Positions 23,280 through 59,087 of a stretch of 64,000 nucleotides of DNA are shown one piece after another. The notes beneath the pieces were generated by a model. That model was not told the DNA's origin and made no database searches. It saw nothing but the letters and a program-made list of their open reading frames with translations. The position numbers and the translations under genes were made by a program. Within the stretch, counting starts at the first letter, position 1. Each line of letters begins with the position of its first letter. Origin of the DNA: Escherichia coli (lineage in GTDB: Bacteria > Pseudomonadota > Gammaproteobacteria > Enterobacterales > Enterobacteriaceae); the NCBI RefSeq assembly GCF_003334315.1, contig NZ_QOWR01000011.1. One strand, given 5' to 3'.

Positions 23280-23378
23280 GCCTGATGCGCTACGCTTATC
23301 AGGCCTACGAAAATCTTGCAATGTATTGAATTTTCATGATTTTGTAGGCCGGATAAGGCGTTCACGCCGCATCCGGCA
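23280..23378. repeat. pair of REP (repetitive extragenic palindromic) elements forming a BIME-like unit downstream of gyrB
   Basis: GCCTGATGCGCTACGCTTATCAGGCCTAC and GTAGGCCGGATAAGGCGTTCACGCCGCATCCGGCA are canonical REP palindromes. Confidence 0.7.
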
Positions 23379-23390
23379 AGAAGCTATAAG

Positions 23391-23423
23391 AAAAGGGCGG
23401 AGATCATCTCCGCCCTTTTTATT
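23391..23423 (+). terminator. rho-independent terminator after gyrB
   Basis: GGGCGGAGAT-c-ATCTCCGCCC stem followed by TTTTTATTT. Confidence 0.75.
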
Positions 23424-23497
23424 TCTGCAATCCGCAATTATCATCCCGCAAATCTATACTTTTTGGGTCAACACGTAACGCTTTACAGGTGATTATC

Positions 23498-23896
23498 ATG
23501 GGGCTTTTTGATGAAGTTGTCGGTGCCTTTCTGAAAGGCGATGCGGGGAAATATCAGGCTATTTTAAGTTGAGTTGAGGAGCAGGGCGGCATTCAGGTGC
23601 TGCTGGAAAAACTGCAAAGTGGCGGCTTAGGGGCCATTCTCTCAACCTGGCTGAGTAATCAACAGGGCAATCAATCGGTTAGTGGCGAGCAACTGGAATC
23701 GGCGCTCGGCACAAATGCGGTGTCCGATCTCGGGCAAAAACTTGGCGTGGATACCAGTACAGCTTCCAGTTTACTGGCAGAACAATTGCCGAAGATTATT
23801 GATGCGCTCTCACCGCAAGGTGAAGTGTCACCACAAGCCAATAACGATCTGCTTTCCGCAGGCATGGAACTGCTGAAAGGGAAACTCTTCCGCTAA
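23498..23896 (+). pseudogene. yidB: DUF937-family protein gene interrupted by an in-frame opal codon (TGA at 23570..23572)
   Basis: ATG at 23498 with upstream GGTGA gives MGLFDEVVGAFLKGDAGKYQAILS then TGA; the same frame continues VEEQGGIQVLLEKLQ... to 23896; read-through is exactly 132 aa. Confidence 0.7.
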
Positions 23897-24010
23897 GCAA
23901 AAAGGGAGCACGCAACGCGCGTTGCATCCCCCTTTTCCCTCGGGTGTTGTACTGATTTTTGAGCGGAATCGCGTTAGCATGGGTCAGGAACCAATCTACC
24001 TGGGGAACTC

Positions 24011-24823
24011 ATGGCTATTAAACTCATTGCTATCGATATGGATGGCACCCTTCTGCTGCCCGATCACACCATTTCACCCGCCGTTAAAAATGCGATTGCC
24101 GCAGCTCGCGCCCGTGGCGTGAATGTCGTGCTAACGACGGGTCGCCCGTATGCAGGTGTGCACAACTACCTGAAAGAGCTGCATATGGAACAGCCGGGCG
24201 ACTACTGCATTACTTATAACGGCGCGCTGGTACAGAAGGCCGCTGATGGTAGCACCGTGGCGCAAACTGCTCTCAGCTATGACGACTATCGTTTCCTGGA
24301 AAAACTCTCTCGCGAAGTCGGTTCTCATTTCCACGCCCTGGACCGCACCACGCTGTACACCGCCAACCGTGATATCAGCTACTACACGGTGCATGAATCC
24401 TTCGTTGCCACCATTCCGCTGGTGTTCTGCGAAGCGGAGAAAATGGACCCCAATACCCAGTTCCTGAAAGTGATGATGATTGATGAACCCGCCATCCTCG
24501 ACCAGGCTATCGCGCGTATTCCGCAGGAAGTGAAAGAGAAATATACCGTGCTGAAAAGTGCGCCGTACTTCCTCGAAATCCTCGATAAACGCGTTAACAA
24601 AGGTACGGGGGTGAAATCACTGGCCGACGTGTTAGGTATTAAACCGGAAGAAATCATGGCGATTGGCGATCAGGAAAACGATATCGCAATGATTGAATAT
24701 GCAGGCGTCGGTGTGGCGATGGATAACGCTATTCCTTCAGTGAAAGAAGTGGCGAACTTTGTCACCAAATCTAACCTTGAAGATGGCGTGGCGTTTGCTA
24801 TTGAGAAGTATGTGCTGAATTAA
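24011..24823 (+). CDS. yidA: HAD-superfamily (Cof-type) sugar phosphatase
   Basis: 270-aa ORF; HAD motif I IAIDMDGTLL and Cof-family C-terminal motifs. Confidence 0.9.
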   Translation: MAIKLIAIDMDGTLLLPDHTISPAVKNAIAAARARGVNVVLTTGRPYAGVHNYLKELHMEQPGDYCITYNGALVQKAADGSTVAQTALSYDDYRFLEKLSREVGSHFHALDRTTLYTANRDISYYTVHESFVATIPLVFCEAEKMDPNTQFLKVMMIDEPAILDQAIARIPQEVKEKYTVLKSAPYFLEILDKRVNKGTGVKSLADVLGIKPEEIMAIGDQENDIAMIEYAGVGVAMDNAIPSVKEVANFVTKSNLEDGVAFAIEKYVLN

Positions 24824-24830
24824 TCTGTGG

Positions 24831-24861
24831 GCGGGCAAACAGCATAAACGCGTTTGCCCGC
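24831..24861. terminator. bidirectional hairpin terminator between convergent yidA and yidX
   Basis: GCGGGCAAAC...GTTTGCCCGC 10-bp stem. Confidence 0.6.
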
Positions 24862-24868
24862 TTACTGA

Positions 24869-25525
24869 TTATTGGTTTACTGCATATACAACCAGAAATT
24901 GCAGCGGTGCAGTAATGATGTCCAGCGTAACAGTCACTGGCAGTAATGCTGCGGAAACACCATCCGGAATGCCTCTGGGTGAATAGTATTCATAAAATCG
25001 CACTTTAAATGGATGGTAGAACGCCATCACCTTTGAGTAATCCATGTTTTTATTTTTCTCATGGATTGTGCCTTTTAGGTTTTCCAGTGACCTGGTACAG
25101 TGTTGAACACCACAGGCAAAACCATAATGCGTTGCCAGTGCCTTTTCTTCTTCGTTATTCCAGTAGTAGTAAAGCGATATTGTGCCGGTAAATTTCTTTT
25201 TCCCCGCATTTAAAACAAATCTTGCGTCATCGGCAACCTGAATATTGTGCCGGTTAAGTGCTGGATCATTGAGCATCTTAACGATGTCATCGGCACCATC
25301 AGTGATAAGGTAATCCAGCGATTCCCCTACAAAAACATAGCCTTTTGTTCCATTACTATCTTTTGCCTGCGATAGCCCAGTGATGGTGTCTGACTGCGAT
25401 TGATACTTTCCTGAACTACCCTTTGCGGTATGGGAAACCAGAGCATACGAGATACAGCCTGAAAGCATCAGCGCCAGTGGGAATAAACCGGCAGCCTTAA
25501 AAAATCCCTTAAAATTCAACTTCAT
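24869..25525 (-). CDS. yidX: putative lipoprotein
   Basis: ORF track 24869..25642 trimmed to Met at 25525 ([24 protein letters not shown]): lipoprotein signal peptide with lipobox LSGC; 218 aa. Confidence 0.7.
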
Positions 25526-25662
25526 GATTAATCCTTTAAACGAGTAGCTAAGCCGTTGAAAGCATACTCTTCTTTCCCTCCTGTTTAGCGCCTGATATCC
25601 CTTTTCAGATTTCTGCCCGACGCATGTCATTTTTTTATGCATTGTTCTTTTTGTGATCTAAA

Positions 25663-25737
25663 TTGTAGTACAACAATATAAGTTTGTACTACATTACACG
25701 CACGGCAAACGCGAACGTCATCACGCTGGTACTACAA
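25663..25737. promoter_or_regulatory. repeated TTGTA(G/C)TACA operator-like motifs in the dgo promoter (candidate DgoR operator)
   Basis: TTGTAGTACA, its inverted copy TTGTACTACA and a third partial copy GTACTACAA lie within about 75 bp upstream of dgoR. Confidence 0.55.
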
Positions 25738-25802
25738 AGTTGCCGCGTTATGCATCGATCGGGGTAAAGTAGAGAAGAACATACAGAGCACAAGGACTCT
25801 CC

Positions 25803-26492
25803 ATGACTCTCAATAAAACCGATCGCATTGTCATTACGCTGGGTAAACAGATCGTTCACGGCAAATACGTGCCAGGCTCGCCGCTTCCGGCTGAGGCGGA
25901 ACTCTGTGAGGAGTTTGCAACCTCGCGCAACATCATCCGTGAGGTGTTCCGTTCGCTGATGGCGAAGCGGCTGATTGAAATGAAACGTTATCGCGGGGCG
26001 TTTGTGGCACCGCGTAACCAGTGGAATTACCTCGACACTGACGTACTGCAATGGGTGCTGGAAAATGACTACGACCCACGGCTTATCAGTGCCATGAGCG
26101 AAGTGCGAAATCTGGTGGAACCGGCGATTGCCCGTTGGGCAGCAGAGCGCGCGACTTCCAGCGATCTGGCGCAGATTGAATCGGCGCTGAACGAGATGAT
26201 TGCCAACAATCAGGACCGCGAAGCGTTTAACGAAGCGGATATTCGCTACCACGAGGCGGTGCTGCAGTCGGTGCATAACCCGGTGTTACAGCAACTTAGC
26301 ATTGCGATCAGTTCGCTGCAGCGGGCGGTTTTTGAACGAACCTGGATGGGCGATGAGGCCAACATGCCGCAAACGCTCCAGGAACATAAGGCGCTGTTCG
26401 ATGCGATACGACATCAGGACGGCGATGCGGCAGAGCAGGCGGCGCTTACCATGATCGCCAGCTCGACACGAAGGTTAAAGGAAATCACATGA
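25803..26492 (+). CDS. dgoR: GntR/FadR-family repressor of the D-galactonate operon
   Basis: 229-aa ORF; N-terminal winged HTH; first gene of dgoRKADT. Confidence 0.9.
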   Translation: MTLNKTDRIVITLGKQIVHGKYVPGSPLPAEAELCEEFATSRNIIREVFRSLMAKRLIEMKRYRGAFVAPRNQWNYLDTDVLQWVLENDYDPRLISAMSEVRNLVEPAIARWAAERATSSDLAQIESALNEMIANNQDREAFNEADIRYHEAVLQSVHNPVLQQLSIAISSLQRAVFERTWMGDEANMPQTLQEHKALFDAIRHQDGDAAEQAALTMIASSTRRLKEIT

Positions 26493-27367
26493 CAGCTCGC
26501 TACATCGCAATTGACTGGGGATCGACCAATCTGCGCGCCTGGCTTTATCAGGGCGACCACTGCCTGGAGAGCAGGCAATCAGAAGCAGGCGTCACGCGCC
26601 TGAACGGAAAATCTCCGGCTGCGGTGTTAGCAGAAGTCACGACCGACTGGCGTGAAGAGAAAACGCCAGTGGTAATGGCAGGAATGGTTGGCAGCAACGT
26701 CGGCTGGAAAGTTGCACCGTATTTATCTGTTCCTGCCTGTTTTTCGTCTATTGGCGAACAATTAACGTCAGTTGGCGACAATATCTGGATTATTCCCGGA
26801 TTATGCGTCTCTCATGACGATAACCACAATGTGATGCGCGGCGAAGAAACACAATTGATCGGCGCGCGAACTCTGGCTCCTTCCTCTCTTTATGTTATGC
26901 CCGGTACGCATTGCAAATGGGTGCAGGCCGATAGCCAGCAAATCAACGATTTTCGCACCGTGATGACCGGTGAATTACATCATTTACTGTTAAATCACTC
27001 ATTGATTGGCGCAGGTTTGCCGCCGCAGGAAAACTCTGCCGATGCCTTCGCGGCTGGCCTTGAGCGCGGCCTTAATGCGCCCGCCATATTGCCGCAGCTT
27101 TTTGAAGTTCGCGCCTCGCATGTGCTGGGAACACTTCCCCGCGAACAGGTCAGCGAATTTCTCTCTGGTTTGTTGATTGGCGCAGAGGTTGCCAGTATGC
27201 GCGACTATGTGACCCATCAACACGCCATCACCCTTGTCGCCGGAACATCGCTGACCGCGCGCTACCAGCAAGCCTTTCAGGCGATGGGTTGCGACGTGAC
27301 GGCGGTGGCGGGCGACACGGCATTTCAGGCTGGTATAAGGAGCATCGCTCATGCAGTGGCAAACTAA
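26489..27367 (+). CDS. dgoK: 2-dehydro-3-deoxygalactonokinase
   Basis: 292-aa ORF; overlaps dgoR stop (ATGA) and dgoA start. Confidence 0.9.
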   Translation: MTARYIAIDWGSTNLRAWLYQGDHCLESRQSEAGVTRLNGKSPAAVLAEVTTDWREEKTPVVMAGMVGSNVGWKVAPYLSVPACFSSIGEQLTSVGDNIWIIPGLCVSHDDNHNVMRGEETQLIGARTLAPSSLYVMPGTHCKWVQADSQQINDFRTVMTGELHHLLLNHSLIGAGLPPQENSADAFAAGLERGLNAPAILPQLFEVRASHVLGTLPREQVSEFLSGLLIGAEVASMRDYVTHQHAITLVAGTSLTARYQQAFQAMGCDVTAVAGDTAFQAGIRSIAHAVAN

Positions 27368-27968
27368 ACTTCCGCTGATCGCCATTTTGCGCGGCATTAA
27401 GCCCGACGAGGCGCTGGCGCATGTTGGCGCGGTGATTGACGCCGGGTTCGACGCGGTTGAAATCCCGCTGAATTCCCCACAATGGGAGCAAAGCATTCCC
27501 GCCATCGTTGATGCGTATGGCGACAAGGCGTTGATTGGCGCAGGTACGGTACTGAAACCTGAACAGGTCGATGCGCTCGCCAGGATGGGCTGTCAGCTCA
27601 TCGTTACGCCCAATATCCATAGTGAAGTGATCCGCCGTGCGGTGGGCTACGGCATGACCGTCTGCCCCGGCTGCGCGACGGCGACCGAAGCCTTTACCGC
27701 GCTCGAAGCGGGCGCGCAGGCGCTGAAAATATTTCCGTCATCGGCTTTTGGTCCGCAATACATCAAAGCGTTAAAAGCGGTATTGCCATCGGACATCGCA
27801 GTCTTTGCCGTTGGCGGCGTGACGCCAGAAAACCTGGCGCAGTGGATAGACGCAGGTTGTGCTGGGGCGGGCTTAGGCAGCGATCTCTATCGCGCCGGGC
27901 AGTCCGTAGAACGCACCGCGCAGCAGGCAGCAGCATTTGTTAAGGCGTATCGAGAGGCAGTGCAATGA
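27351..27968 (+). CDS. dgoA: 2-dehydro-3-deoxy-6-phosphogalactonate aldolase
   Basis: 205-aa ORF, KDPG/KHG aldolase family; 17-bp overlap with dgoK. Confidence 0.9.
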
Positions 27969-29113
27969 AAATCACCAAAATTACCACGTATCGTTTACCT
28001 CCCCGCTGGATGTTCCTGAAAATTGAAACCGATGAAGGCGTGGTCGGCTGGGGCGAGCCAGTGATTGAAGGCCGCGCCCGCACGGTGGAAGCGGCAGTTC
28101 ACGAGCTGAGCGACTATTTGATTGGTCAGGATCCATCGCGCATCAACGACTTATGGCAAGTGATGTATCGCGCCGGATTTTATCGTGGCGGTCCAATCCT
28201 GATGAGCGCCATCGCCGGGATCGACCAGGCGTTATGGGATATCAAAGGCAAAGTGCTGAATGCGCCGGTCTGGCAACTGATGGGCGGCCTGGTTCGCGAC
28301 AAAATTAAAGCCTACAGTTGGGTCGGCGGCGATCGTCCGGCGGATGTTATCGACGGCATTAAAACGCTACGCGAAATCGGCTTCGATACCTTTAAACTGA
28401 ACGGTTGTGAAGAACTGGGGCTAATTGATAACTCCCGCGCGGTAGATGCGGCAGTCAACACCGTGGCACAAATTCGTGAAGCTTTTGGCAATCAGATTGA
28501 GTTTGGTCTTGATTTCCACGGTCGCGTCAGCGCGCCGATGGCGAAAGTGCTGATTAAAGAACTGGAGCCGTATCGCCCACTGTTTATTGAAGAGCCGGTG
28601 CTGGCAGAACAAGCCGAATACTACCCGAAACTGGCGGCACAAACGCATATTCCGCTGGCGGCGGGTGAGCGCATGTTCTCACGCTTCGATTTTAAACGCG
28701 TGCTGGAGGCGGGCGGTATTTCGATTCTGCAACCGGATCTCTCCCACGCGGGCGGTATTACCGAATGCTACAAAATTGCCGGAATGGCAGAAGCCTATGA
28801 TGTGACCCTTGCGCCGCACTGTCCGCTCGGACCGATTGCACTGGCGGCTTGTCTGCATATCGACTTTGTTTCCTATAACGCGGTACTTCAGGAACAAAGT
28901 ATGGGCATTCATTACAACAAAGGCGCGGAGTTACTCGACTTTGTGAAAAACAAAGAAGACTTCAGCATGGTTGGCGGCTTCTTTAAACCGTTAACGAAAC
29001 CGGGCTTAGGCGTGGAAATCGACGAAGCTAAAGTTATTGAGTTCAGTAAAAATGCCCCGGACTGGCGTAATCCGCTCTGGCGTCATGAAGATAACAGCGT
29101 AGCAGAGTGGTAA
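27965..29113 (+). CDS. dgoD: D-galactonate dehydratase (enolase superfamily)
   Basis: 382-aa ORF; mandelate racemase / muconate lactonizing enzyme family signature. Confidence 0.92.
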
Positions 29114-29232
29114 TTCCTGCCACGTAAGCCCCTCATCGGGCACTAAAACAGCAATACAAAAATATAACCCTCTGTAAATTACAGGGCATGGTGAGCGGCT
29201 TCGCTATGCCCAAAATCTGGAGAAAGCTCGCT

Positions 29233-30525
29233 ATGGATATCCCCGTTAATGCAGCAAAGCCGGGGCGTCGGCGTTATCTGACGCTGGTGATGATCTTTAT
29301 TACGGTGGTCATTTGTTATGTTGACCGCGCTAACCTGGCCGTGGCTTCCGCCCATATTCAGGAAGAGTTCGGCATTACGAAAGCGGAAATGGGCTATGTA
29401 TTTTCGGCCTTCGCCTGGCTTTATACGCTATGCCAGATCCCCGGCGGTTGGTTTTTAGATCGCGTAGGTTCTCGCGTGACTTATTTTATTGCGATATTTG
29501 GTTGGTCAGTGGCGACTTTATTCCAGGGCTTTGCCACGGGATTAATGTCATTAATTGGTCTGCGTGCGATAACCGGTATTTTCGAAGCGCCCGCTTTCCC
29601 GACCAATAACCGGATGGTGACCAGCTGGTTCCCGGAACATGAACGCGCTTCCGCCGTTGGTTTTTATACGTCTGGTCAGTTTGTCGGTCTGGCGTTTTTG
29701 ACTCCGCTGCTGATCTGGATTCAGGAGATGTTGAGCTGGCACTGGGTGTTCATTGTCACTGGTGGTATCGGCATTATCTGGTCGCTGATTTGGTTTAAGG
29801 TTTATCAGCCGCCGCGCCTGACCAAAGGTATCAGCAAAGCTGAACTGGATTACATTCGTGATGGCGGCGGTCTGGTGGATGGTGATGCGCCGGTGAAAAA
29901 AGAGGCACGTCAGCCGTTAACAGCCAAAGACTGGAAGCTGGTGTTCCATCGTAAACTGATCGGCGTTTATCTTGGGCAATTTGCGGTGGCTTCTACACTG
30001 TGGTTTTTCTTAACCTGGTTCCCGAACTATTTAACCCAGGAAAAAGGAATCACGGCGCTGAAAGCAGGCTTTATGACCACGGTGCCATTCCTCGCGGCGT
30101 TTGTCGGCGTCCTGCTCTCTGGCTGGGTCGCGGATCTGCTGGTACGTAAGGGCTTTTCACTGGGCTTTGCGCGTAAAACGCCGATTATCTGCGGCTTGCT
30201 GATCTCCACCTGCATTATGGGCGCTAACTACACTAACGATCCGATGATGATTATGTGCCTGATGGCGCTGGCATTCTTCGGTAACGGTTTTGCTTCGATT
30301 ACCTGGTCGCTGGTCTCTTCTCTGGCACCGATGCGCCTGATTGGTTTAACCGGCGGCGTGTTTAACTTCGCCGGTGGTCTGGGCGGCATCACCGTTCCGC
30401 TGGTGGTGGGGTACCTGGCGCAGGGTTACGGTTTCGCACCTGCACTGGTTTATATCTCCGCCGTCGCGTTGATTGGCGCGCTCTCTTACATCCTGCTGGT
30501 GGGCGATGTGAAGCGCGTTGGCTAA
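29233..30525 (+). CDS. dgoT: D-galactonate:H+ symporter (MFS, anion:cation symporter family)
   Basis: ORF track 29188..30525 trimmed to [16 protein letters not shown] (430 aa); 12-TM MFS. Confidence 0.9.
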
Positions 30526-31586: not shown

Positions 31587-31632
31587 CTTTTCACTCACAT
31601 TCATCACGATGGCAAAAGACTATTGTCTGAAA

Positions 31633-31648: not shown

Positions 31649-31650
31649 GT

Positions 31651-33446: not shown

Positions 33447-33540
33447 AGCCGATGAGGACGCGCCTGATGGGTGTTCTGGCTACCTGACCTGTCCATTGTG
33501 GAAGGTCTTACATTCTCGCTGATTTCAGGAGCTATTGATT
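33447..33540 (+). promoter_or_regulatory. ibpA 5' UTR (about 95 nt; candidate ROSE-like RNA thermometer)
   Basis: Long structured leader between the sigma-32 promoter and the ibpA RBS; thermometer function is established knowledge, the fold was not computed. Confidence 0.45.
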
Positions 33541-33954
33541 ATGCGTAACTTTGATTTATCCCCGCTTTACCGTTCTGCTATTGGATTTGACCGTTTGTTT
33601 AACCACTTAGAAAACAACCAGAGCCAGAGTAATGGCGGCTACCCTCCGTATAACGTTGAACTGGTAGACGAAAACCATTACCGCATTGCTATCGCTGTGG
33701 CTGGTTTTGCTGAGAGCGAACTGGAAATTACCGCCCAGGATAATCTGCTGGTGGTGAAAGGTGCTCACGCCGACGAACAAAAAGAGCGCACCTATCTGTA
33801 CCAGGGCATCGCTGAACGCAACTTTGAACGCAAATTCCAGTTAGCTGAGAACATTCATGTTCGTGGGGCTAACCTGGTAAATGGTTTGCTGTATATCGAT
33901 CTCGAACGCGTGATTCCGGAAGCGAAAAAACCGCGCCGTATCGAAATCAACTAA
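33541..33954 (+). CDS. ibpA: small heat shock protein IbpA (alpha-crystallin family)
   Basis: 137-aa ORF starting [21 protein letters not shown]; alpha-crystallin domain. Confidence 0.95.
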
Positions 33955-45856: not shown

Positions 45857-47041
45857 TTAAACGGGCTGCCCCTGATGCGACATCCGCGTCGCCAGCGGCA
45901 GCCAGCACAGCACGATCAACAATCCCATTAAGGTCATCAACAACCCCAGGCTGCCCTGACCGGTTTGCGGCAACATCGCAGAGAGCGACGCCAGCACGCC
46001 GGAACCAATGTTTTGCAGACCGCCGACCAGCGCGCCAGCCGTGCCCGCCAGGAAGGGGAACGGCTCCATCGCGCCGCTGGTCGCCAGCGGAAACAGCATC
46101 CCGGCACCGAAAAAGAACAGCGCGGCGGGAACGAGCAGCGTCCAGACATTCATCACGCCAAACCAGTCGGGGATCCACATCAGCAAGCCAGCCAGCAGGC
46201 AGCAGATAACCGACTGCCACATTAACGTGGAGAAGCGTTTATTGGGACGTCCGGCAAACCATGCGCCAAAAAACGCTGCCGGAATCGGCAGAATAAACAA
46301 AATACTGACCGTCATACTGCTCAGCCCTAACACCGCGCCCATCAGCACGCCGGAGCAGGCTTCAAAGGCGGCAATCCCGGCCAGACCGCCAATCAGCATC
46401 AGCAAATAACAGTTAAAACCGCTGTTACCGAAAAGCGTTTTATAACTGGTAAGCAGGCGCGTGCGCGGTGCATCGACCGGACGCGTTTCCGGCATCCAGC
46501 GGGCCATACTGAAGGTCACACCAGCACAAAGAACCAACAAAAAGAGATAACAGGCGCGCCAGTTCCACATCGTATCCAGCAGACCGCCGATTAGCGGTGC
46601 GAGCAACGGACTGACGAGAATCCCCATGTTTAACAGGCTGTTAGCATGGCGCAACTGTGTCCGTTCATATAAATCTCGCGGTAAAGTACGCGCCATTACG
46701 CCGCCAACGCCGGTGCCCATCCCCTGCATCGCGCTGGCGGCAATCAACACCGTCAAACTGGAGGTCGTGACCGCGACCAGCGTTGCCAGCATAAAAATGG
46801 ACATTCCGACGAGGATCACCGGTCGGCGGCCCACGCGGTCGGAAATCGGGCCATAAAACAGCTGTGAGACACCGTAAGTCAGCAGATAAGCGCCCATTAC
46901 GCTCTGCACCGCCCCTTCACGGACGTTGAGATCGCGCGCCATATCGGCAATAGCTGGAATATAAATGGTTTGCGCCATCTGACCGACGGCCACGAGTAAT
47001 ACCAACATCAATAACAAATTGACGTTTCTTTGCCTTTTCAT
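45857..47041 (-). CDS. emrD: MFS multidrug efflux transporter EmrD
   Basis: ORF track trimmed to MKRQRNVNLLLMLVLLVAVGQMAQ (394 aa). Confidence 0.9.
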   Translation of the reverse strand: MKRQRNVNLLLMLVLLVAVGQMAQTIYIPAIADMARDLNVREGAVQSVMGAYLLTYGVSQLFYGPISDRVGRRPVILVGMSIFMLATLVAVTTSSLTVLIAASAMQGMGTGVGGVMARTLPRDLYERTQLRHANSLLNMGILVSPLLAPLIGGLLDTMWNWRACYLFLLVLCAGVTFSMARWMPETRPVDAPRTRLLTSYKTLFGNSGFNCYLLMLIGGLAGIAAFEACSGVLMGAVLGLSSMTVSILFILPIPAAFFGAWFAGRPNKRFSTLMWQSVICCLLAGLLMWIPDWFGVMNVWTLLVPAALFFFGAGMLFPLATSGAMEPFPFLAGTAGALVGGLQNIGSGVLASLSAMLPQTGQGSLGLLMTLMGLLIVLCWLPLATRMSHQGQPV

Positions 47042-47214
47042 TATCACGGATGCTTTTATAAAAATAATTAGAATAAGTCACTACGCATTCCCATAAATGC
47101 GGGAGAGGAATCTATCACATTGATGAATGTTAGCCAGATATACGCCAGGAATGGGGAATTGTTTAGCGGCAGAATATGTAAACAAAAGCGGCAATAAATG
47201 TTGCCGGGAGAGAT

Positions 47215-47255
47215 GGTAGGGCGGATAAGATGCGTCAGCATCGCATCCGACACCA
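47215..47255. repeat. REP-like palindromic element between emrD and tisB
   Basis: GGCGGATAAGATGCGTCAGCATCGCATCCGACACC resembles the REP consensus. Confidence 0.5.
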
Positions 47256-47266
47256 ACCCGCACGCT

Positions 47267-47298
47267 AAATATAAAAGGGGAGCGGTTTCCCGCTCCCC
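47267..47298 (-). terminator. rho-independent terminator of the tisAB transcript
   Basis: GGGGAGCGG-tttc-CCGCTCCCC stem; on the minus strand it is followed by a U-tract (plus-strand AAATATAAAA). Confidence 0.7.
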
Positions 47299-47320
47299 TT
47301 TGGTGCGACTTGAATCTGAA

Positions 47321-47410
47321 TTACTTCAGGTATTTCAGAACAGCATCAAGCAGTTGCAGTGCTGCAACAATGAGTTTGAGGATAAGAATGGCGATATCCA
47401 CCAGGTTCAT
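47321..47410 (-). CDS. tisB: type I toxin TisB (29-aa membrane peptide MNLVDIAILILKLIVAALQLLDAVLKYLK)
   Basis: Hand-translated 30-codon ORF below track cut-off, with AGGAG RBS; exact TisB peptide. Confidence 0.9.
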   Translation of the reverse strand: MNLVDIAILILKLIVAALQLLDAVLKYLK

Positions 47411-47512
47411 ACGCGTCTCCTGTGGTTCAGGAGCACTGCCAGCTGACGTACCTTTCCGCTGCCTGTTGCCAGCTGTTGTGCACGCGGTATCTCAAGGAGA
47501 AACGTTGTGCTT

Positions 47513-47533
47513 GTTGACATAACACAGTGTGCT
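47513..47533 (-). promoter_or_regulatory. IstR-1 target site within the tisAB 5' UTR
   Basis: 21-nt segment GTTGACATAACACAGTGTGCT is a direct repeat (20/21) of 47771..47791; because the two copies are transcribed from opposite strands the RNAs are complementary. Confidence 0.6.
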
Positions 47534-47646
47534 CACGCGGGGTTAAGGCGCTGACGGCACCACCCGTTTCAGCCAGGACTTAGTGCGCCGGGTAACGATG
47601 CGGCCCCCGCATAACACATTGCGTACAGTGATATTATAGAAGTTTA

Positions 47647-47662
47647 CTGTATAAATAAACAG
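47647..47662. promoter_or_regulatory. LexA box (SOS box) controlling the tisAB promoter
   Basis: taCTGTataaataaACAGta matches CTGT-N8-ACAG with AT-rich spacer; overlaps a minus-strand TATAAT -10 element. Confidence 0.75.
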
Positions 47663-47770
47663 TAATATTTGGACAAAACGCAAACTGTGATCGATACTCA
47701 ACTATGCACTAAATACGTCAAAATTCGTGCCGAAATTGCGCGTTCTGCGCGGAACACGTATACTTTCAGT

Positions 47771-47846
47771 GTTGACATAATACAGTGTGCTTTGCGGTTA
47801 CCAGCCGCAGGCGACTGACGAAACCTCGCTCCGGCGGGGTTTTTTG
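47771..47846 (+). ncRNA. istR: IstR-1 antitoxin small RNA (about 75 nt); the longer IstR-2 probably starts about 65 nt upstream
   Basis: TATACT -10 element just upstream; the 5' end carries the 21-nt repeat complementary to the tisAB leader; ends at a GC-rich hairpin plus GGGGTTTTTT. Confidence 0.55.
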
Positions 47847-47974
47847 TTATCTGCAATTCAGTACAAAACGTGATCAACCCCTCAATTTTCCCTTGCTGAA
47901 AAATTTTCCATTGTCTCCCCTGTAAAGCTGTGCTTGTATAAATATTGTTAAACACAAAACCAACAAGGTCCCCA

Positions 47975-50218: not shown

Positions 50219-50236
50219 ACCCGCCAGGACAAGACC

Positions 50237-50827
50237 ATGATCACCGTTGCCCTTATAGACGATCACCTCATCGTCCGCTCCGGCTTTGCGCAGCTGCTGG
50301 GGCTGGAACCTGATTTGCAGGTAGTTGCCGAGTTTGGTTCGGGGCGCGAGGCGCTGGCGGGGCTGCCGGGGCGCGGTGTGCAGGTGTGTATTTGCGATAT
50401 CTCCATGCCCGATATCTCCGGTCTGGAGCTGCTAAGCCAGCTGCCGAAAGGTATGGCGACGATTATGCTCTCCGTTCACGACAGTCCTGCGCTGGTTGAG
50501 CAGGCGCTTAACGCGGGGGCACGCGGCTTTCTTTCCAAACGCTGTAGCCCGGATGAACTCATTGCTGCGGTGCATACGGTTGCCACGGGCGGCTGTTATC
50601 TGACGCCGGATATTGCCATTAAACTGGCATCCGGTCGTCAGGACCCGCTAACCAAACGTGAACGCCAGGTGGCGGAAAAACTGGCGCAAGGAATGGCGGT
50701 GAAAGAGATTGCCGCCGAACTGGGCTTGTCACCGAAAACGGTACACGTCCATCGCGCCAATCTGATGGAAAAACTGGGCGTCAGTAACGACGTAGAGCTG
50801 GCGCGCCGCATGTTTGATGGCTGGTGA
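50237..50827 (+). CDS. uhpA: response regulator UhpA (NarL/FixJ family)
   Basis: 196-aa ORF; receiver domain with phospho-acceptor Asp ([10 protein letters not shown]) and LuxR-type HTH. Confidence 0.9.
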
Positions 50828-52329
50828 TGAAGACGTTGTTCTCCCGCTTAATTACCGTTATTGCCTGCTTTTTTATCTTCTCTGCCGCATGGTTTTGCCT
50901 GTGGAGTATCAGCCTGCATCTGGTTGAGCGCCCTGATATGGCGGTGCTGTTATTTCCGTTTGGTCTGCGTCTGGGGCTAATGCTGCAATGCCCGCGCGGA
51001 TACTGGCCCGTATTGCTGGGCGCGGAGTGGCTGCTGATTTACTGGCTAACGCAGGCGGTCGGTTTAACCCATTTTCCGTTATTGATGATCGGTAGTTTAC
51101 TGACGTTACTGCCCGTAGCGCTGATCTCGCGCTATCGCCATCAGCGTGACTGGCGCACCTTGCTGTTACAGGGGGCGGCGTTAACGGCGGCGGCGTTGTT
51201 GCAGTCGCTGCCCTGGCTTTGGCACGGCAAAGAGTCGTGGAATGCGCTGTTGCTGACTTTAACTGGCGGCCTGACGCTGGCCCCGATATGTCTGGTGTTC
51301 TGGCACTATCTCGCCAATAACACCTGGCTGCCGCTCGGTCCGTCACTGGTTTCTCAGCCAATCAACTGGCGCGGGCGACATCTGGTCTGGTACTTGCTGC
51401 TGTTTGTTATCAGTCTCTGGCTCCAGTTGGGATTGCCGGACGAACTGTCGCGCTTTACGCCATTCTGTCTGGCGCTGCCGATTATCGCGCTGGCCTGGCA
51501 CTATGGTTGGCAAGGGGCGCTGATTGCGACGTTGATGAACGCCATCGCGCTGATCGCCAGTCAAACCTGGCGCGATCATCCGGTGGATTTATTGCTCTCG
51601 CTGCTGGTGCAAAGTCTGACAGGGTTGTTGCTTGGCGCTGGCATCCAGCGGTTGCGTGAACTTAACCAGTCGCTGCAAAAGGAACTGGCGCGCAATCAGC
51701 ATCTGGCTGAACGGTTGCTGGAAACCGAAGAGAGCGTGCGCCGTGATGTGGCGCGTGAGCTGCATGATGATATCGGTCAGACCATCACTGCTATTCGTAC
51801 TCAGGCGGGCATTGTTCAGCGGCTGGCGGCAGATAACGCCAGCGTGAAGCAGAGCGGGCAGCTCATCGAACAACTATCGCTGGGCGTTTACGACGCGGTG
51901 CGCCGTTTGTTGGGTCGGTTACGTCCGCGCCAGTTGGATGATCTCACCCTGGAGCAGGCCATCCGCTCACTGATGCGGGAAATGGAGCTGGAAGGGCGCG
52001 GTATTGTCAGCCATCTCGAATGGCGAATCGATGAATCAGCGTTAAGCGAAAACCAGCGCGTGACGCTGTTTCGTGTCTGCCAGGAAGGGCTGAACAACAT
52101 TGTGAAACATGCTGATGCCAGCGCGGTCACCCTGCAAGGCTGGCAGCAGGATGAACGGTTGATGCTGGTTATTGAAGACGATGGCAGCGGTTTGCCGCCG
52201 GGTTCCGGGCAACAAGGTTTTGGCCTCACCGGAATGCGCGAGCGCGTAACGGCGCTGGGTGGCACATTACACATTTCCTGTCTGCACGGCACGCGTGTCA
52301 GCGTTTCTCTACCTCAACGCTATGTCTAA
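50827..52329 (+). CDS. uhpB: sensor histidine kinase UhpB
   Basis: 500-aa ORF; N-terminal membrane domain; H-box ELHDDIGQ; start overlaps uhpA stop. Confidence 0.9.
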
Positions 52330-52338
52330 GGTTTGATG

Positions 52339-53658
52339 ATGTTGCCGTTTCTGAAAGCGCCTGCCGATGCGCCATTAATGACTGATAAATATGAAATTGA
52401 TGCCCGCTATCGCTACTGGCGTCGGCATATTCTGCTGACCATCTGGCTGGGTTACGCGCTGTTTTACTTCACGCGGAAAAGTTTTAACGCCGCCGTACCA
52501 GAAATCCTTGCTAACGGCGTGCTCAGCCGTAGCGATATCGGCCTGTTAGCGACCCTGTTTTACATTACCTATGGCGTGTCGAAGTTTGTCTCCGGCATTG
52601 TCAGCGATCGCTCAAATGCCCGTTATTTTATGGGGATAGGGCTTATCGCCACGGGCATTATCAACATTCTGTTTGGCTTCTCGACGTCGCTATGGGCGTT
52701 TGCCGTGCTCTGGGTGCTGAACGCCTTTTTCCAGGGCTGGGGTTCACCGGTGTGTGCGCGTCTGTTAACGGCCTGGTATTCACGTACCGAGCGCGGCGGT
52801 TGGTGGGCATTATGGAACACGGCGCATAACGTCGGCGGCGCACTCATTCCCATTGTGATGGCAGCGGCTGCGCTGCATTACGGCTGGCGTGCCGGGATGA
52901 TGATTGCTGGTTGTATGGCGATAGTCGTGGGGATTTTTCTCTGCTGGCGGCTACGCGATCGCCCGCAGGCGTTAGGTTTACCGGCGGTCGGTGAATGGCG
53001 ACACGACGCGCTGGAAATTGCTCAACAACAAGAAGGGGCAGGGTTGACGCGTAAAGAGATCCTCACCAAATATGTGTTGCTGAATCCGTATATCTGGCTG
53101 CTTTCGTTTTGCTATGTGCTGGTCTATGTGGTCCGGGCGGCGATCAACGACTGGGGCAATTTGTATATGTCCGAGACACTGGGCGTCGATCTGGTCACGG
53201 CGAATACGGCAGTGACGATGTTTGAACTGGGCGGATTTATCGGTGCGCTGGTAGCCGGTTGGGGCTCGGACAAATTGTTTAACGGCAACCGAGGGCCGAT
53301 GAATTTGATTTTCGCCGCCGGAATTTTGCTTTCAGTCGGCTCCCTGTGGCTGATGCCATTTGCCAGCTACGTGATGCAGGCAACCTGCTTCTTCACCATT
53401 GGTTTTTTTGTCTTTGGCCCACAGATGTTAATCGGTATGGCGGCGGCAGAGTGTTCCCACAAAGAGGCGGCAGGGGCGGCGACGGGGTTTGTCGGCTTGT
53501 TTGCTTATCTGGGGGCGTCGCTTGCTGGTTGGCCGCTGGCGAAAGTACTCGATACCTGGCACTGGAGCGGATTTTTTGTGGTTATCTCTATCGCCGCCGG
53601 GATTTCCGCACTGCTGTTACTGCCCTTTTTGAACGCCCAGACACCGCGCGAAGCGTGA
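52339..53658 (+). CDS. uhpC: glucose-6-phosphate sensor/transporter-like MFS protein UhpC
   Basis: 439-aa ORF, paralogous to UhpT (organophosphate:Pi antiporter family). Confidence 0.88.
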   Translation: MLPFLKAPADAPLMTDKYEIDARYRYWRRHILLTIWLGYALFYFTRKSFNAAVPEILANGVLSRSDIGLLATLFYITYGVSKFVSGIVSDRSNARYFMGIGLIATGIINILFGFSTSLWAFAVLWVLNAFFQGWGSPVCARLLTAWYSRTERGGWWALWNTAHNVGGALIPIVMAAAALHYGWRAGMMIAGCMAIVVGIFLCWRLRDRPQALGLPAVGEWRHDALEIAQQQEGAGLTRKEILTKYVLLNPYIWLLSFCYVLVYVVRAAINDWGNLYMSETLGVDLVTANTAVTMFELGGFIGALVAGWGSDKLFNGNRGPMNLIFAAGILLSVGSLWLMPFASYVMQATCFFTIGFFVFGPQMLIGMAAAECSHKEAAGAATGFVGLFAYLGASLAGWPLAKVLDTWHWSGFFVVISIAAGISALLLLPFLNAQTPREA

Positions 53659-53699
53659 TGCATCTCACCTTTTCACTTCATATCCGGCAAAACTAAGAA

Positions 53700-53765
53700 A
53701 TTTTCCAGGTTTTGCCTGGACGCTATCTCAGGCCTGATTTGCTGCTGATTTTTACAATGCATGCC
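53700..53765 (+). promoter_or_regulatory. uhpT promoter region with candidate UhpA binding repeats
   Basis: Inverted CCAGG/CCTGG repeats (ttCCAGGttttgCCTGGa, CAGGCCTG) upstream of a TACAAT -10 element; assignment by position, not verified. Confidence 0.45.
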
Positions 53766-53795
53766 TCACGCAGGTATTCATTTCAGGAGTAACCC

Positions 53796-55187
53796 ATGCT
53801 GGCTTTCTTAAACCAGGTTCGCAAGCCGACCCTGGACCTTCCGCTCGAAGTGCGGCGCAAAATGTGGTTCAAACCGTTCATGCAATCCTACCTGGTGGTC
53901 TTTATCGGCTACCTGACGATGTACCTGATTCGCAAGAACTTTAACATCGCGCAGAACGATATGATTTCGACCTACGGGTTGAGCATGACGCAGCTGGGGA
54001 TGATCGGCCTGGGTTTCTCCATCACTTATGGCGTGGGTAAAACGCTGGTTTCCTACTACGCCGACGGCAAAAACACCAAACAATTCCTGCCGTTCATGCT
54101 GATCCTCTCTGCTATTTGTATGCTGGGCTTCAGTGCCAGTATGGGCAGCGGCTCGGTTAGCCTGTTCCTGATGATTGCCTTCTACGCCTTAAGCGGCTTT
54201 TTCCAGAGTACCGGCGGTTCGTGCAGTTACTCCACCATCACCAAATGGACGCCGCGTCGTAAACGCGGGACATTCCTCGGTTTCTGGAATATTTCTCACA
54301 ACCTTGGCGGTGCAGGCGCAGCAGGTGTGGCGCTGTTCGGGGCAAATTACCTGTTCGATGGCCATGTCATCGGCATGTTTATCTTCCCGTCGATTATCGC
54401 GCTGATTGTCGGTTTTATCGGCCTGCGTTACGGCAGCGACTCCCCGGAATCTTATGGCCTCGGCAAAGCTGAAGAACTGTTCGGCGAGGAGATCAGCGAA
54501 GAGGACAAAGAGACAGAATCTACCGATATGACCAAGTGGCAGATCTTTGTTGAGTATGTGCTGAAAAACAAAGTGATCTGGCTGCTGTGCTTCGCCAACA
54601 TTTTCCTCTATGTGGTACGTATTGGTATCGACCAGTGGTCAACCGTATACGCGTTCCAGGAACTGAAACTCTCTAAAGCGGTGGCGATTCAGGGCTTTAC
54701 GCTGTTTGAAGCTGGTGCGCTGGTCGGTACGCTGCTGTGGGGCTGGCTCTCTGACCTGGCGAACGGTCGCCGTGGCCTGGTGGCCTGCATCGCGCTGGCG
54801 CTGATTATCGCCACGCTCGGTGTGTATCAACATGCCAGTAACGAATATATCTATCTGGCTTCTCTCTTTGCGTTGGGTTTCCTGGTCTTTGGCCCGCAAT
54901 TGTTGATTGGTGTGGCTGCTGTTGGCTTTGTACCTAAAAAAGCGATTGGCGCTGCCGATGGTATTAAAGGCACCTTTGCTTACCTGATTGGTGACAGCTT
55001 TGCCAAGTTAGGTCTGGGAATGATTGCCGATGGGACGCCGGTATTCGGCCTTACCGGCTGGGCAGGCACCTTCGCCGCGCTGGATATCGCCGCGATTGGT
55101 TGTATCTGCCTGATGGCGATAGTGGCGGTAATGGAAGAACGCAAAATCCGCCGCGAGAAAAAAATTCAGCAGTTGACAGTGGCATAA
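53796..55187 (+). CDS. uhpT: hexose-6-phosphate:phosphate antiporter UhpT
   Basis: 463-aa MFS ORF (organophosphate:Pi antiporter family). Confidence 0.92.
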
Positions 55188-55205
55188 ACGTAACTGGTGA
55201 CTTTT

Positions 55206-55232
55206 GCCCGGCATGACGCCGGGCTTTTTTTA
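55206..55232. terminator. bidirectional rho-independent terminator between convergent uhpT and ade
   Basis: GCCCGGC-atgac-GCCGGGC stem followed by TTTTTTT. Confidence 0.75.
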
Positions 55233-56999
55233 TTATTCCGTGACTTCCAGCGTAGTGAAGGCAAACTTCTCGCCATCAAATAGCCCCTGACTGGTTAGTT
55301 TTAGCGCGGGGATCACTGGCAGAGAAAGAAACGCCATCTGAATAAACGGCTCATCGGGTAACGGACCGCATTCACGGGCGGCGGCTTTCAAGGCGTCAAT
55401 TTGTTCCGCCAGCGACTGCGCCGTGTCGGTGCTCATCAGCCCGGCAATGGGTAACGGCAGATGACTTTGTACCTGGCCGTTACGTACCACGCACAGCCCG
55501 CCGCCATCCTGAATCACCTGATTGACCGCCAGCGCCATCTCTTCGGCACTGCGACCGATCACCACAATATTATGGCTGTCATGGCTGACCGTCGCAGCCA
55601 GCGCACCTTCATTCAGTCCAAAGCCGCCAAGCAAACCACAAGCCGGAGCCAGCCGTTGCCCGTAACGCTCAAGTACGGCAATAAAGCTCACATCATCGCG
55701 ATCAAAACCATTTTCGCTGTAGACGCTGGAGTGGGAGTGCGTAATCAATTCGTTATGGATGACGTCAATGACCCGATAGCGTTTTCCGGGCGTAAATTGC
55801 AGGGCAAAGTCGCTGGCGGAAACTGGCTGGCGGGCAATGGTGTTGCCATATGGCGGAGCGGATTGTGCCAGTCTCGCCGACTCTTCCGCCTGTAAGGTTT
55901 GCGCATCAATCGGCTCGCCTTTCACCAGTACCTGCTGCACCGTGACCTTACGCGCATCGCTCAACAGGACGATATCGGCCTGCTTGCCGGGTGCCAGTAA
56001 GCCGAGGTGATTCAGACCAAAGTGGCGCGCCGTCGACCAGCTGGCGACGCGATATGCCACATGCAGCGGCACATTGTGTTGTTCGATCAGGCGGCGAATT
56101 AAGGCATCGATGTGTCCTTCATGGGCGATCTCCCACGGGTTACGGTCATCGGTACAGAGCATGCATTGCGGGCTGTTAAATTCGTTGATCAACGGTGCCA
56201 GCGCGTTGAGATTGCGGGCAGCGGACCCTTCGCGGATCATCAACGACATGCCGAGTTGTAATTTCCGGCGTCCTTCTTCCAGCTGATAACTTTCGTGGCA
56301 GTTTTCAATACCCGCAGTAATATAGGCGTTAAGTTCTTTACCACCCAAACCCGGGCAGTGACCGTCCAGCGTCAGGTGGCGAAATGCATCCAGTTTATCG
56401 AGCAGCGCATTCTGCCCGCTAATTACGCCAGGGTAGTCCATCATTTCTGCAAGGCCGGTAACCTGCGGATGGTCCCGCCAGGCGAGCATCTGTTCAAGGG
56501 TAAAACTGGCACCGTTAACATCGCAGCCTTCCAGGGCGGGTACGCAAGAGCTGACCTGTAAGTACTGGTTTTGCCTTGCCTGTTCGGCACAGCGGGCAAA
56601 CCAGGCGAATCCGGCTTCTCCCATCACGTTGACGATTTCATGAGGGTCGCAAATAACGGTCGTCAGGCCGCGCGGCAGGGTAGCGGTTTCAAAAGTGACC
56701 GGCGTCATCATGCTGGATTCAATATGCAGGTGAGCATCAATAAACCCTGGCACCGCCGTTGCGCCGCGAGCATCAATCCGCTGCAAAGCCGGAGCATCAG
56801 CGTATTCTGCGCCAACACCGGCAATGTAACGTCCTTTAATCACAATTGGGCCGGAAATTTCTCCGCCATTGATCAGGTCGAGAATAGAGACATTATCAAT
56901 AATATAATCGGCAACAGCGTCGCCACGGGAAACGGCTAACAATTCCTGGTATTCAGCCCGGCTAATGTGATGAAATTTATGGTTAATAGAATTATTCAT
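55233..56999 (-). CDS. ade: adenine deaminase
   Basis: 588-aa ORF; amidohydrolase metal-binding motif ([15 protein letters not shown]). Confidence 0.9.
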
Positions 57000-57095
57000 A
57001 TTTTTCTCATTTTGATTTTATCAATTTGATTATTATTTATCATAAAGAAACGTCGCGAGATTATTAAAGAATATCCATTAATGTGCAATTGAAAT

Positions 57096-57109
57096 GTGAT
57101 AATTATCAC
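57096..57109. promoter_or_regulatory. perfect 14-bp palindrome GTGATAATTATCAC (CRP-like / Fur-like operator candidate) in the ade-adeQ divergent region
   Basis: Reads TGTGA-N6-TCACT on one strand; sits about 65 bp upstream of the adeQ start in a very AT-rich intergenic region. Confidence 0.4.
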
Positions 57110-57173
57110 TGAACCGTTGTTGTCATTTGTTTTACAAAAGCAAGGGATTAAATCTCCTCCAATGGACAAAAAA

Positions 57174-58508
57174 ATGAATAATGACAATACCGATTACGTG
57201 AGTAATGAATCAGGGACGCTTTCGCGATTATTTAAACTACCTCAGCATGGGACCACCGTCCGCACAGAATTGATTGCGGGGATGACCACTTTTTTAACCA
57301 TGGTGTACATCGTTTTTGTGAACCCGCAAATCCTCGGCGCGGCACAAATGGACCCGAAAGTGGTGTTTGTTACCACCTGTTTGATTGCCGGTATCGGCAG
57401 TATTGCGATGGGGATATTTGCTAACTTACCCGTGGCGCTGGCTCCGGCAATGGGGCTGAACGCCTTCTTTGCCTTCGTGGTCGTGGGGGCGATGGGCATC
57501 TCCTGGCAGACCGGGATGGGCGCAATATTCTGGGGCGCAGTTGGACTATTTTTGCTCACGCTGTTTCGTATCCGGTACTGGATGATCTCCAACATTCCCT
57601 TAAGTTTACGTATTGGTATCACCAGCGGAATTGGATTATTTATCGCCTTAATGGGATTAAAAAATACTGGCGTTATTGTCGCCAATAAAGACACGCTGGT
57701 GATGATTGGCGATTTAAGTTCTCACGGCGTGTTGTTAGGTATTTTAGGGTTTTTTATTATAACCGTGTTGTCATCACGTCATTTTCATGCCGCGGTGCTG
57801 GTTTCTATTGTGGTGACGTCTTGCTGTGGATTATTTTTCGGTGATGTTCATTTTAGCGGCGTCTATTCCATTCCGCCTGATATTAGCGGCGTCATTGGTG
57901 AAGTAGATTTGAGCGGCGCGTTAACACTTGAACTCGCCGGTATCATTTTCTCCTTTATGCTGATCAACCTATTTGATTCATCAGGAACATTAATTGGTGT
58001 AACTGATAAAGCGGGCTTAATAGATAGTAACGGTAAATTCCCCAATATGAATAAGGCGCTGTATGTTGATAGCGTCAGTTCGGTGGCGGGGGCGTTTATC
58101 GGCACCTCGTCTGTTACTGCCTATATTGAAAGTACTTCTGGTGTGGCAGTCGGTGGTCGCACGGGGCTGACTGCGGTTGTGGTTGGCGTTATGTTCCTGT
58201 TAGTTATGTTCTTCTCACCGCTGGTGGCGATGGTTCCTCCTTACGCAACCGCCGGAGCGTTAATCTTTGTTGGCGTGCTGATGACTTCGAGCCTGGCGCG
58301 CGTTAACTGGGATGATTTTACCGAATCGGTGCCTGCGTTTATTACCACGGTGATGATGCCCTTTACTTTCTCGATCACCGAAGGGATTGCACTCGGCTTT
58401 ATGTCGTACTGCATCATGAAAGTGTGCACCGGGCGCTGGCGCGATCTGAACCTGTGTGTGGTGGTGGTCGCAGCTCTGTTTGCACTGAAGATTATTCTGG
58501 TGGATTAG
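57174..58508 (+). CDS. adeQ: adenine permease (NCS2/AzgA family), paralogue of adeP
   Basis: ORF track 57096..58508 trimmed to MNNDNTDYVSNESGTLSRLF (444 aa). Confidence 0.85.
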   Translation: MNNDNTDYVSNESGTLSRLFKLPQHGTTVRTELIAGMTTFLTMVYIVFVNPQILGAAQMDPKVVFVTTCLIAGIGSIAMGIFANLPVALAPAMGLNAFFAFVVVGAMGISWQTGMGAIFWGAVGLFLLTLFRIRYWMISNIPLSLRIGITSGIGLFIALMGLKNTGVIVANKDTLVMIGDLSSHGVLLGILGFFIITVLSSRHFHAAVLVSIVVTSCCGLFFGDVHFSGVYSIPPDISGVIGEVDLSGALTLELAGIIFSFMLINLFDSSGTLIGVTDKAGLIDSNGKFPNMNKALYVDSVSSVAGAFIGTSSVTAYIESTSGVAVGGRTGLTAVVVGVMFLLVMFFSPLVAMVPPYATAGALIFVGVLMTSSLARVNWDDFTESVPAFITTVMMPFTFSITEGIALGFMSYCIMKVCTGRWRDLNLCVVVVAALFALKIILVD

Positions 58509-58560
58509 TAACTGGCGAGGGTTTCCAGATATCATGAGTTCTGATTACGCAGGAGAACTC

Positions 58561-59013
58561 ATGATCTGGATAATGCTCGCCACGCTGGCGGTAGTGTTTG
58601 TGGTTGGTTTTCGGGTGCTGACATCCGGGGCCAGAAAAGCGATTCGCCGTCTCAGCGATCGGCTGAATATCGATGTCGTACCCGTGGAGTCGATGGTCGA
58701 TCAAATGGGAAAGTCAGCCGGTGACGAATTTTTACGTTATTTGCATCGCCCGGATGAGTCGCACCTGCAAAACGCCGCGCAGGTGTTGCTCATCTGGCAA
58801 ATTGTCATTGTCGATGGTAGCGAACAGAACCTGCTGCAATGGCATCGGATTTTACAAAAAGCCCGTCTTGCCGCGCCGATTACCGATGCTCAGGTCAGGC
58901 TGGCGCTGGGTTTTCTGCGCGAAACCGAACCTGAAATGCAGGATATTAATGCTTTTCAGATGCGCTATAACGCGTTCTTTCAGCCTGCCGAGGGCGTTCA
59001 CTGGCTGCATTAA
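58561..59013 (+). CDS. yicN: uncharacterised protein YicN
   Basis: ORF track trimmed to MIWIMLATLAVVFVVGFRVL (150 aa), N-terminal TM helix. Confidence 0.7.
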   Translation: MIWIMLATLAVVFVVGFRVLTSGARKAIRRLSDRLNIDVVPVESMVDQMGKSAGDEFLRYLHRPDESHLQNAAQVLLIWQIVIVDGSEQNLLQWHRILQKARLAAPITDAQVRLALGFLRETEPEMQDINAFQMRYNAFFQPAEGVHWLH

Positions 59014-59021
59014 AACCGCTT

Positions 59022-59087
59022 CGTCTTATCAGCCTACAGACCGCGCCTGACCTGTCGGGTGGATAAGACGTTCACGCCGCATCCGGT
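59022..59087. repeat. REP element(s) between yicN and nepI
   Basis: GGATAAGACGTTCACGCCGCATCCGG matches the REP consensus core. Confidence 0.6.

Follow-up and report, generated by a model that had tools for sequence, protein, structure and literature searches.

REP and BIME palindromic repeats in intergenic regions of a 64-kb Escherichia coli chromosomal stretch

We analyzed a stretch of 64,000 nt of the Escherichia coli chromosome (contig NZ_QOWR01000011.1 of assembly GCF_003334315.1; the whole stretch is referred to as the window) for repetitive extragenic palindromes (REPs) and for the bacterial interspersed mosaic elements (BIMEs) that contain them. The elements found in the window almost certainly belong to the enterobacterial REP/BIME repeats, a family of intergenic, imperfect palindromes of 30-40 nt with a GTAG foot. 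A first-pass annotation had placed canonical REPs at three intergenic sites, gyrB-yidB (site 1), tisB-emrD (site 2), and yicN-nepI (site 3), and REP-family sequence was recovered at all of them by a hidden Markov model and a covariance model (CM) trained outside the window. The term canonical is appropriate for site 1, which matches the consensus exactly, whereas a variant occupies site 2 and a degenerate remnant site 3. The list of three sites was also incomplete, as a further REP is present at 14154-14187, between yidC and mnmE and outside the range covered by that annotation. The REP/BIME family has long been known, and the copies described here are ordinary in sequence, arrangement, and context.

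Positions 15963-63796 of the window form a gap-free match of 99.6% identity to E. coli K-12 MG1655 (NC_000913.3, 3,885,000..3,837,167, in reverse orientation), and the region corresponds to dnaA-gyrB through nepI of the E. coli chromosome. The flanking gene pairs gyrB/yidB, tisB/emrD, and yicN/nepI are borne out by the K-12 annotation, which agrees with the gene names given by the first-pass annotation. As the K-12 RefSeq annotation used here contains no repeat_region features, the REP models were trained on eight 50-kb K-12 stretches (400 kb) located elsewhere than the window region. Three consensus seeds gathered 39 K-12 REPs from the 400 kb, which were used for an nhmmer profile. The covariance model (R1) was built from 34 REPs, consisting of 31 non-redundant copies and three weaker copies from a second nhmmer round. 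The consensus hairpin of R1 contains compensatory changes at three pairs (G-C<->U-A in 14 sequences, C-G<->U-A in 4 sequences, and G-C<->A-U in 13 sequences, respectively). When the window was scanned with R1 without filters, five REP matches were obtained, all with E <= 8e-5, and the next match on other sequence had E = 0.25. The five matches are as follows.

14154-14187, + strand: short REP, yidC-mnmE; CM 30.5 bits, E = 9.7e-7; nhmmer 11.9 bits, E = 0.01; CTAC after a GGCGGAT...ATCCGCC stem; hairpin -14.3 kcal/mol, z = -2.7
23277-23310, + strand: z1 REP, gyrB-yidB, left BIME-1 arm in the gyrB 3' untranslated region (UTR); CM 41 bits, E = 7.7e-10; nhmmer 27.9 bits; CTAC at 23305-23308; RNA hairpin -14.8 kcal/mol, z = -3.5
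23342-23380, - strand: y REP, gyrB-yidB, right BIME-1 arm; CM 60 bits, E = 2e-15; nhmmer 46.8 bits; GTAG at 23344-23347 (+ strand); hairpin -20.9 kcal/mol, z = -4.7, with a 2x2 internal mismatch
47214-47254, - strand: solitary variant REP, tisB-emrD; CM 36.7 bits, E = 1.4e-8; nhmmer 25.3 bits; GTCGGAT...ATCCGCC stem with z2-length interior; GTAG at 47216-47219 (+ strand); hairpin -19.2 kcal/mol, z = -4.9
59052-59087, - strand: decayed y REP, yicN-nepI; CM 23.9 bits, E = 8e-5; nhmmer local match 27.7 bits; GTAG changed to GTCG (59054-59057); outer three stem pairs non-canonical

Formal scoring with REP models, which the first-pass annotation had named as the way to refute its claim, recovered every claimed element, although a half REP at site 3 (59022-59038) was below the threshold when taken alone. 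Weak CM matches such as 53711-53736 (E = 0.25) were dismissed as noise. All five REPs are extragenic and located between annotated genes. GTAG or CTAC is present at 23305-23308, 23344-23347, 47216-47219, and 14182-14185, and is absent only from the site 3 REP, which has GTCG. The four intact REPs (23277-23310, 23342-23380, 47214-47254, and 14154-14187) fold into hairpins of -14.3 to -20.9 kcal/mol (z of -2.7 to -4.9), each of which contains an internal loop. The family is also multi-copy: across 5426 complete E. coli genomes, the set to which the genome counts below refer, the median number of places matched by the site-1 query was at least 40.

Site 1 is an intact textbook BIME-1, in which a z1 REP and a y REP flank a conserved L linker. 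The first-pass annotation had described a REP pair after gyrB at 23280-23378, and both members proved to be exact: the z1 consensus GCCTGATGCGCTACGCTTATCAGGCCTAC is found at 23280-23308 (+ strand) and the y consensus GCCGGATGCGGCGTGAACGCCTTATCCGGCCTAC at 23344-23377 (- strand), each with 0 mismatches, and neither was matched in 100 dinucleotide shuffles. The z1 copy is the same as GCCTGATGCGCTACGCTTATCAGGCCTACG, one of the REP queries of Durrant et al. 2024 (PMC11208160). Two further features define the site.

23309-23343, no strand: L linker of 35 nt with the core TGCAATNTATTGAATT, which is invariant in 4 independent BIME-1 copies
23390-23420, + strand: gyrB intrinsic terminator, a hairpin and T-run outside the BIME; -23.3 kcal/mol, z = -7.05

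Within the linker core, the motif ATTCAATACATTG at 23319-23331 (- strand) resembles a site for integration host factor (IHF), with 1 mismatch to the consensus WATCAANNNNTTR, and is a candidate by consensus match only. Alignment with three independent K-12 BIME-1 copies (fepA-entD, katE-chbG, and yqeA-yqeB) gave 91% mean column identity including the linker. In the RNA of the whole BIME, the two arms can pair together (-42.6 kcal/mol, z = -5.5). The BIME stem begins 21 nt past the gyrB stop codon (23256-23258), and yidB is the next gene. Because the BIME lies between this stop codon and the intrinsic terminator, it is part of the gyrB 3' UTR. The terminator is kept in a BIME-less allele of E. 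coli (locus L010; loci compared with the window carry L numbers) and in E. albertii. A simple terminator scan missed the gyrB terminator, in which the hairpin is followed by TTTTTATTT; the cause is probably a greedy stem that left a loop of <3 nt.

One alternative is that the palindromes are hairpins of a general kind (intrinsic terminators or operator sites, for instance) with a chance resemblance to REPs. They are indeed G+C-rich stem-loops at gene ends, like terminators, and neither site 3 nor the half REP is a strong match. However, none of the palindromes has a T-run, and sites 1, 2, and the REP at 14154 are each adjoined by a terminator hairpin of their own. The matches scored 23.9-60 bits against models trained elsewhere, whereas 50 dinucleotide-shuffled versions of the window yielded a maximum nhmmer score of 15.5 bits, with none at or above 25 bits. 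Moreover, the site 3 allele of O157:H7, which has GTAG and an intact inner stem, is a better REP (34.1 bits), showing that site 3 descends from a REP. Thus, formal scoring rules out the chance origin, which retains hardly any probability; the exception is the half REP at 59022-59038, for which only the context speaks.

A different explanation concerns the linker. Rfam has no REP family as such, and of its repeat-related models only ES036 (RF02751, CssrF), which corresponds to the BIME-1 linker, matched in the window, at 23301-23343 (- strand). The score of 44.8 bits exceeds the gathering threshold of 37.6, as would be expected if this segment were a genuine small-RNA gene and not a repeat linker. 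However, ES036 also matched two of the three K-12 BIME-1 linkers aligned with site 1 (L005:16219-16261 and L003:10138-10179), and a further K-12 match was found beside a y REP (L005:23365-23407). These matches at several BIME-1 linkers indicate a dispersed repeat linker family and not a locus-specific small-RNA gene. No promoter-like site was detected in 23200-23520 on either strand, and a literature search found no relevant paper on ES036/CssrF. A small-RNA gene at this position is therefore very unlikely. Another Rfam family, naRNA4/CssrE, matched a BIME-2 in the K-12 training loci (L007 42395-42472). The ES036/CssrF and naRNA4/CssrE small-RNA families are in effect repeat-element models.

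The BIME-1 at site 1 varies among strains. The BIME-less allele, carried for example by NZ_CP041996.1, appears to occur in ~13% of the E. coli genomes, a value derived from query coverage (4626 genomes covered at least 80% of a 501-nt query vs 5325 genomes at least 80% of a 701-nt query). In L010, an unrelated stretch of ~36 nt is present in place of the BIME. Since E. albertii carries an orthologous BIME-1 ahead of the same gyrB terminator, the BIME was probably lost secondarily in the BIME-less genomes. In strain Res13-Lact-EA06-22 (L011, NZ_CP062910.1, 1694-3076), the z1 REP is interrupted by IS621, whose IS110-family bridge-RNA recombinase has the natural REP target ATCAGGCCTAC with a CT core (Durrant 2024, PMC11208160). 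The junctions read ...ATCAGGCCT-IS621-CTACG, which corresponds to an insertion between 23306 and 23307 of the window, and the insertion point coincides with the reported target, the CT core being found on both sides of the element.

Across Enterobacterales, REPs were found in 11 of 120 gyrB 3' flanks, and the other 109 had none. REP pairs in the opposite, tail-to-tail arrangement were found in Salmonella arizonae, several Citrobacter, Pluralibacter, and Superficieibacter, and four flanks contained a single significant REP (both Pseudocitrobacter, C. youngae, and Citrobacter Res13). The REP-bearing loci noted were L019, L100, L130, L038, L071, L084, L049, and L074. The opposite arrangement of the REPs suggests that the same gyrB 3' UTR was colonized independently.

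Site 2 contains one intact variant REP. Variants with the GTCGGAT stem occur elsewhere in K-12, for example at L009:17917. The REP is located just downstream of the tisB terminator and upstream of ysdE and the emrD promoter region, with the following neighbors.

45857-47047, - strand: emrD (K-12 annotation)
47274-47301, - strand: tisB terminator (terminator scan)
47321-47410, - strand: tisB (K-12 annotation)

Three alleles of site 2 were found among E. coli genomes: one with the REP, one with an inverted-repeat element of ~180 nt, and one without tisB/istR. The ~180-nt element, with the arms CCCTCTCCCCAAAGGGG...CCCCTTTGGGGAGAGGG, stands in place of the REP in L014 (NZ_CP051219.1, about 461-640). 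Full copies were detected in 1499 genomes; when partial copies are counted as well, the median is 3 places per genome. The element probably represents another small dispersed repeat family. Between about one-sixth and one-fifth of complete E. coli genomes lack the type I toxin-antitoxin (TA) locus tisB/istR (47208-47897 of the window), and the left breakpoint of this indel is 6 nt from the REP. In L015 (6258-6415), 157 nt with a decayed REP-like relic are present instead. Rfam matched istR at 47716-47845 with 150 bits.

The yidC-mnmE intergenic region contains one intact short REP, which is essentially fixed in E. coli. It was present in 5425 of the 5426 genomes and missing from one divergent environmental isolate (NZ_OZ197100.1, L016). 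It is flanked on one side by the yidC terminator (14195-14218) and on the other by the ATG start codon of mnmE (- strand, about 14134), which it precedes by ~19 nt. The REP shares 81% identity with the z1 copy of site 1.

In the yicN-nepI intergenic region, the BIME has decayed by mutation and has lost GTAG as well as its own hairpin. The y REP is still 86% identical to the y copy of site 1, but the REP hairpin no longer forms (-10.3 kcal/mol, z = -0.57), and the element thus lacks the defining palindrome/hairpin feature. The same decayed GTCG form is present in K-12. Upstream of the y REP is the second component of the site.

59022-59038, + strand: 3' half of a z-type REP, CGTCTTATCAGCCTACA; nhmmer 6.5 bits, E = 0.49

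Matches as strong as this one occurred 0.74 times per shuffled window, and the half REP is credible only because it lies head-to-head with a significant y REP at a distance of 16 nt. It begins 8 nt past the stop codon of yicN (58534-59013) and can form base pairs with the y remnant when the site is folded as RNA (-24.6 kcal/mol, z = -1.98). Two differences from K-12 were observed nearby: the yicN stop codon is TAA in the window and TGA in K-12 (59011-59019 stretch), and a C/T difference is found at 59019, 7 nt past the yicN stop and three bases ahead of the half REP. Since the features recognized by the REP-associated tyrosine transposase (TnpA-REP/RAYT) have been lost, the site 3 element is, judged from its sequence, probably inert as a REP.

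Site 3 is also polymorphic. In ~32% of E. coli genomes, positions 59089-59129 are replaced by a cassette of ~840 bp that encodes a RelE/ParE toxin and a helix-turn-helix antitoxin. In O157:H7 FRIK804 (L013), the cassette is at 6340-7179, with the left junction 1 nt beyond the REP. No second REP or direct repeat was found at the far junctions of the TA cassette and tisB/istR indels.

Two spurious open reading frame (ORF) calls are caused by the REPs, as the first-pass annotation had stated, and both ORFs do exist in the window. One encodes 66 amino acids from a GTG start (23278..23478); it starts in the z1 REP and extends across the linker and the y REP, then through the gyrB terminator and the sequence upstream of yidB. 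The other encodes 451 amino acids (59059..60414) from a GTG within the y REP of site 3, compared with 396 amino acids for K-12 NepI, which starts at window position 59224. In favor of real coding sequence, both frames are open with GTG starts, and one RefSeq genome has an extra 'hypothetical protein' annotated under its gyrB-yidB match. However, the K-12 annotation includes neither ORF, and NCBIfam has no match for the 66-amino-acid product or for the 55-amino-acid extension of NepI, whereas the NepI equivalog profile aligns with the short NepI form from end to end (1-396 of 396). The course of the 66-amino-acid ORF through two REPs, a linker, and a terminator also speaks against coding, and its start is lost in BIME-less genomes. 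In the ~32% of genomes with the TA cassette, the putative 55-codon extension is broken and nepI remains intact. The probability that these REP-initiated segments are real coding sequence is thus negligible. Recognition of the REPs therefore prevents mis-annotation of both the 66-amino-acid ORF and the NepI extension.

The known properties of the family suggest how such elements may act. TnpA-REP/RAYT recognizes GTAG together with a mismatched hairpin on single-stranded DNA, BIME-1 linkers bind IHF, and REP hairpins in RNA can impede 3'->5' exonucleases, attenuate transcription, or brake ribosomes when they lie within ~15 nt of a stop codon (PMC3333891, PMC12306157). By analogy, the REPs of the window would have been spread and maintained by RAYT, and once inserted they would be co-transcribed with the upstream gene. 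Their hairpins could then block 3'->5' exonucleases, attenuate transcription, or slow terminating ribosomes, and the BIME-1 linker may additionally bind IHF.

Several points weigh against a functional reading of these particular copies. RNA stabilization, IHF binding, and RAYT processing are ascribed to them on the basis of the family, and no RAYT gene is present in the window. Site 3 of the window strain fails two defining features of REPs, GTAG and the hairpin. At site 1, the BIME is upstream of the strong gyrB terminator, which makes a protective role at the 3' end largely redundant, and the BIME-less genomes retain the terminator, which argues against an essential role. Given its distance of 21 nt from the stop codon, the strong terminator that follows it, and its dispensability in many strains, the gyrB BIME is most likely near-neutral.

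The three sites listed by the first-pass annotation are evolutionarily labile, with loss of the BIME, insertion of IS621 at a known target, and indels that abut REPs. In two of the presence/absence polymorphisms, the breakpoint is 1-6 nt from a REP foot, and both concern TA loci (tisB/istR and the RelE/ParE cassette). Small accessory cassettes might recombine or integrate at the REPs themselves, with capture or loss of TA modules mediated by REPs or RAYT, but we consider this unlikely. It is more likely that the proximity is a coincidence in permissive intergenic DNA, because indels are tolerated in intergenic DNA, where REPs also reside. The REPs nevertheless help to explain the intergenic differences between E. 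coli strains at these sites, and the z1 REP of gyrB-yidB offers a natural insertion target to IS621, whose bridge-RNA recombinase is now employed in genome engineering. The current understanding of REP biology is not changed by these results.

Some other features of the window were observed. Two pairs of 300-nt direct repeats with ~70% identity (4390-4689 / 57213-57512 and 5068-5367 / 57891-58190) have the same spacing of 52,823 nt and probably represent a paralogous transporter gene pair, with adeQ at the second position. Rfam matched AsdA (antisense of dnaA) at 17744-17824 with 102 bits and the ROSE_2 thermometer upstream of ibpA at 33475-33547 with 100 bits. The gap-free alignment with K-12 ends at 63796, in or near setC, and the last 200 nt of the window may differ from K-12.

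The sites were also compared with known systems. The z1 REP of the window contains ATCAGGCCTAC, as do IS621 target sites (Choi 2003; PMC11208160), and this target is unoccupied in the window. Site 3 is similar to BIME-2 or an atypical BIME, which combines y and z2 REPs with short linkers, in that a y REP is head-to-head with a z half across a 16-nt linker. It differs in being truncated and decayed and in not being tandemly repeated, and the 5' half of the z REP is replaced by the end of yicN. In K-12, solitary REPs account for 84 of 584 REPs (PMC3333891). The REPs at 47214-47254 and 14154-14187 are likewise lone, extragenic, imperfect hairpins with a GTAG foot, as are solitary y and z REPs, but their stems are GGCGGAT/ATCCGCC or GTCGGAT, compared with the GCCGGAT/GCCTGAT consensus, and the copy at 14154 combines a z1-length interior with a y-type (G-C) stem. 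Finally, BIME-1 (RIB/RIP) is composed of a z1 REP, an L linker with an IHF site, and a y REP (Bachellier et al., summarized by Ton-Hoang et al. 2012, PMC3333891). Site 1 shares the exact z1 and y arms in inverse orientation, the GTAG/CTAC ends directed towards a conserved linker of 35 nt, and the single-copy arrangement. Its linker has a candidate IHF motif by consensus match, and structurally no difference from BIME-1 was found.

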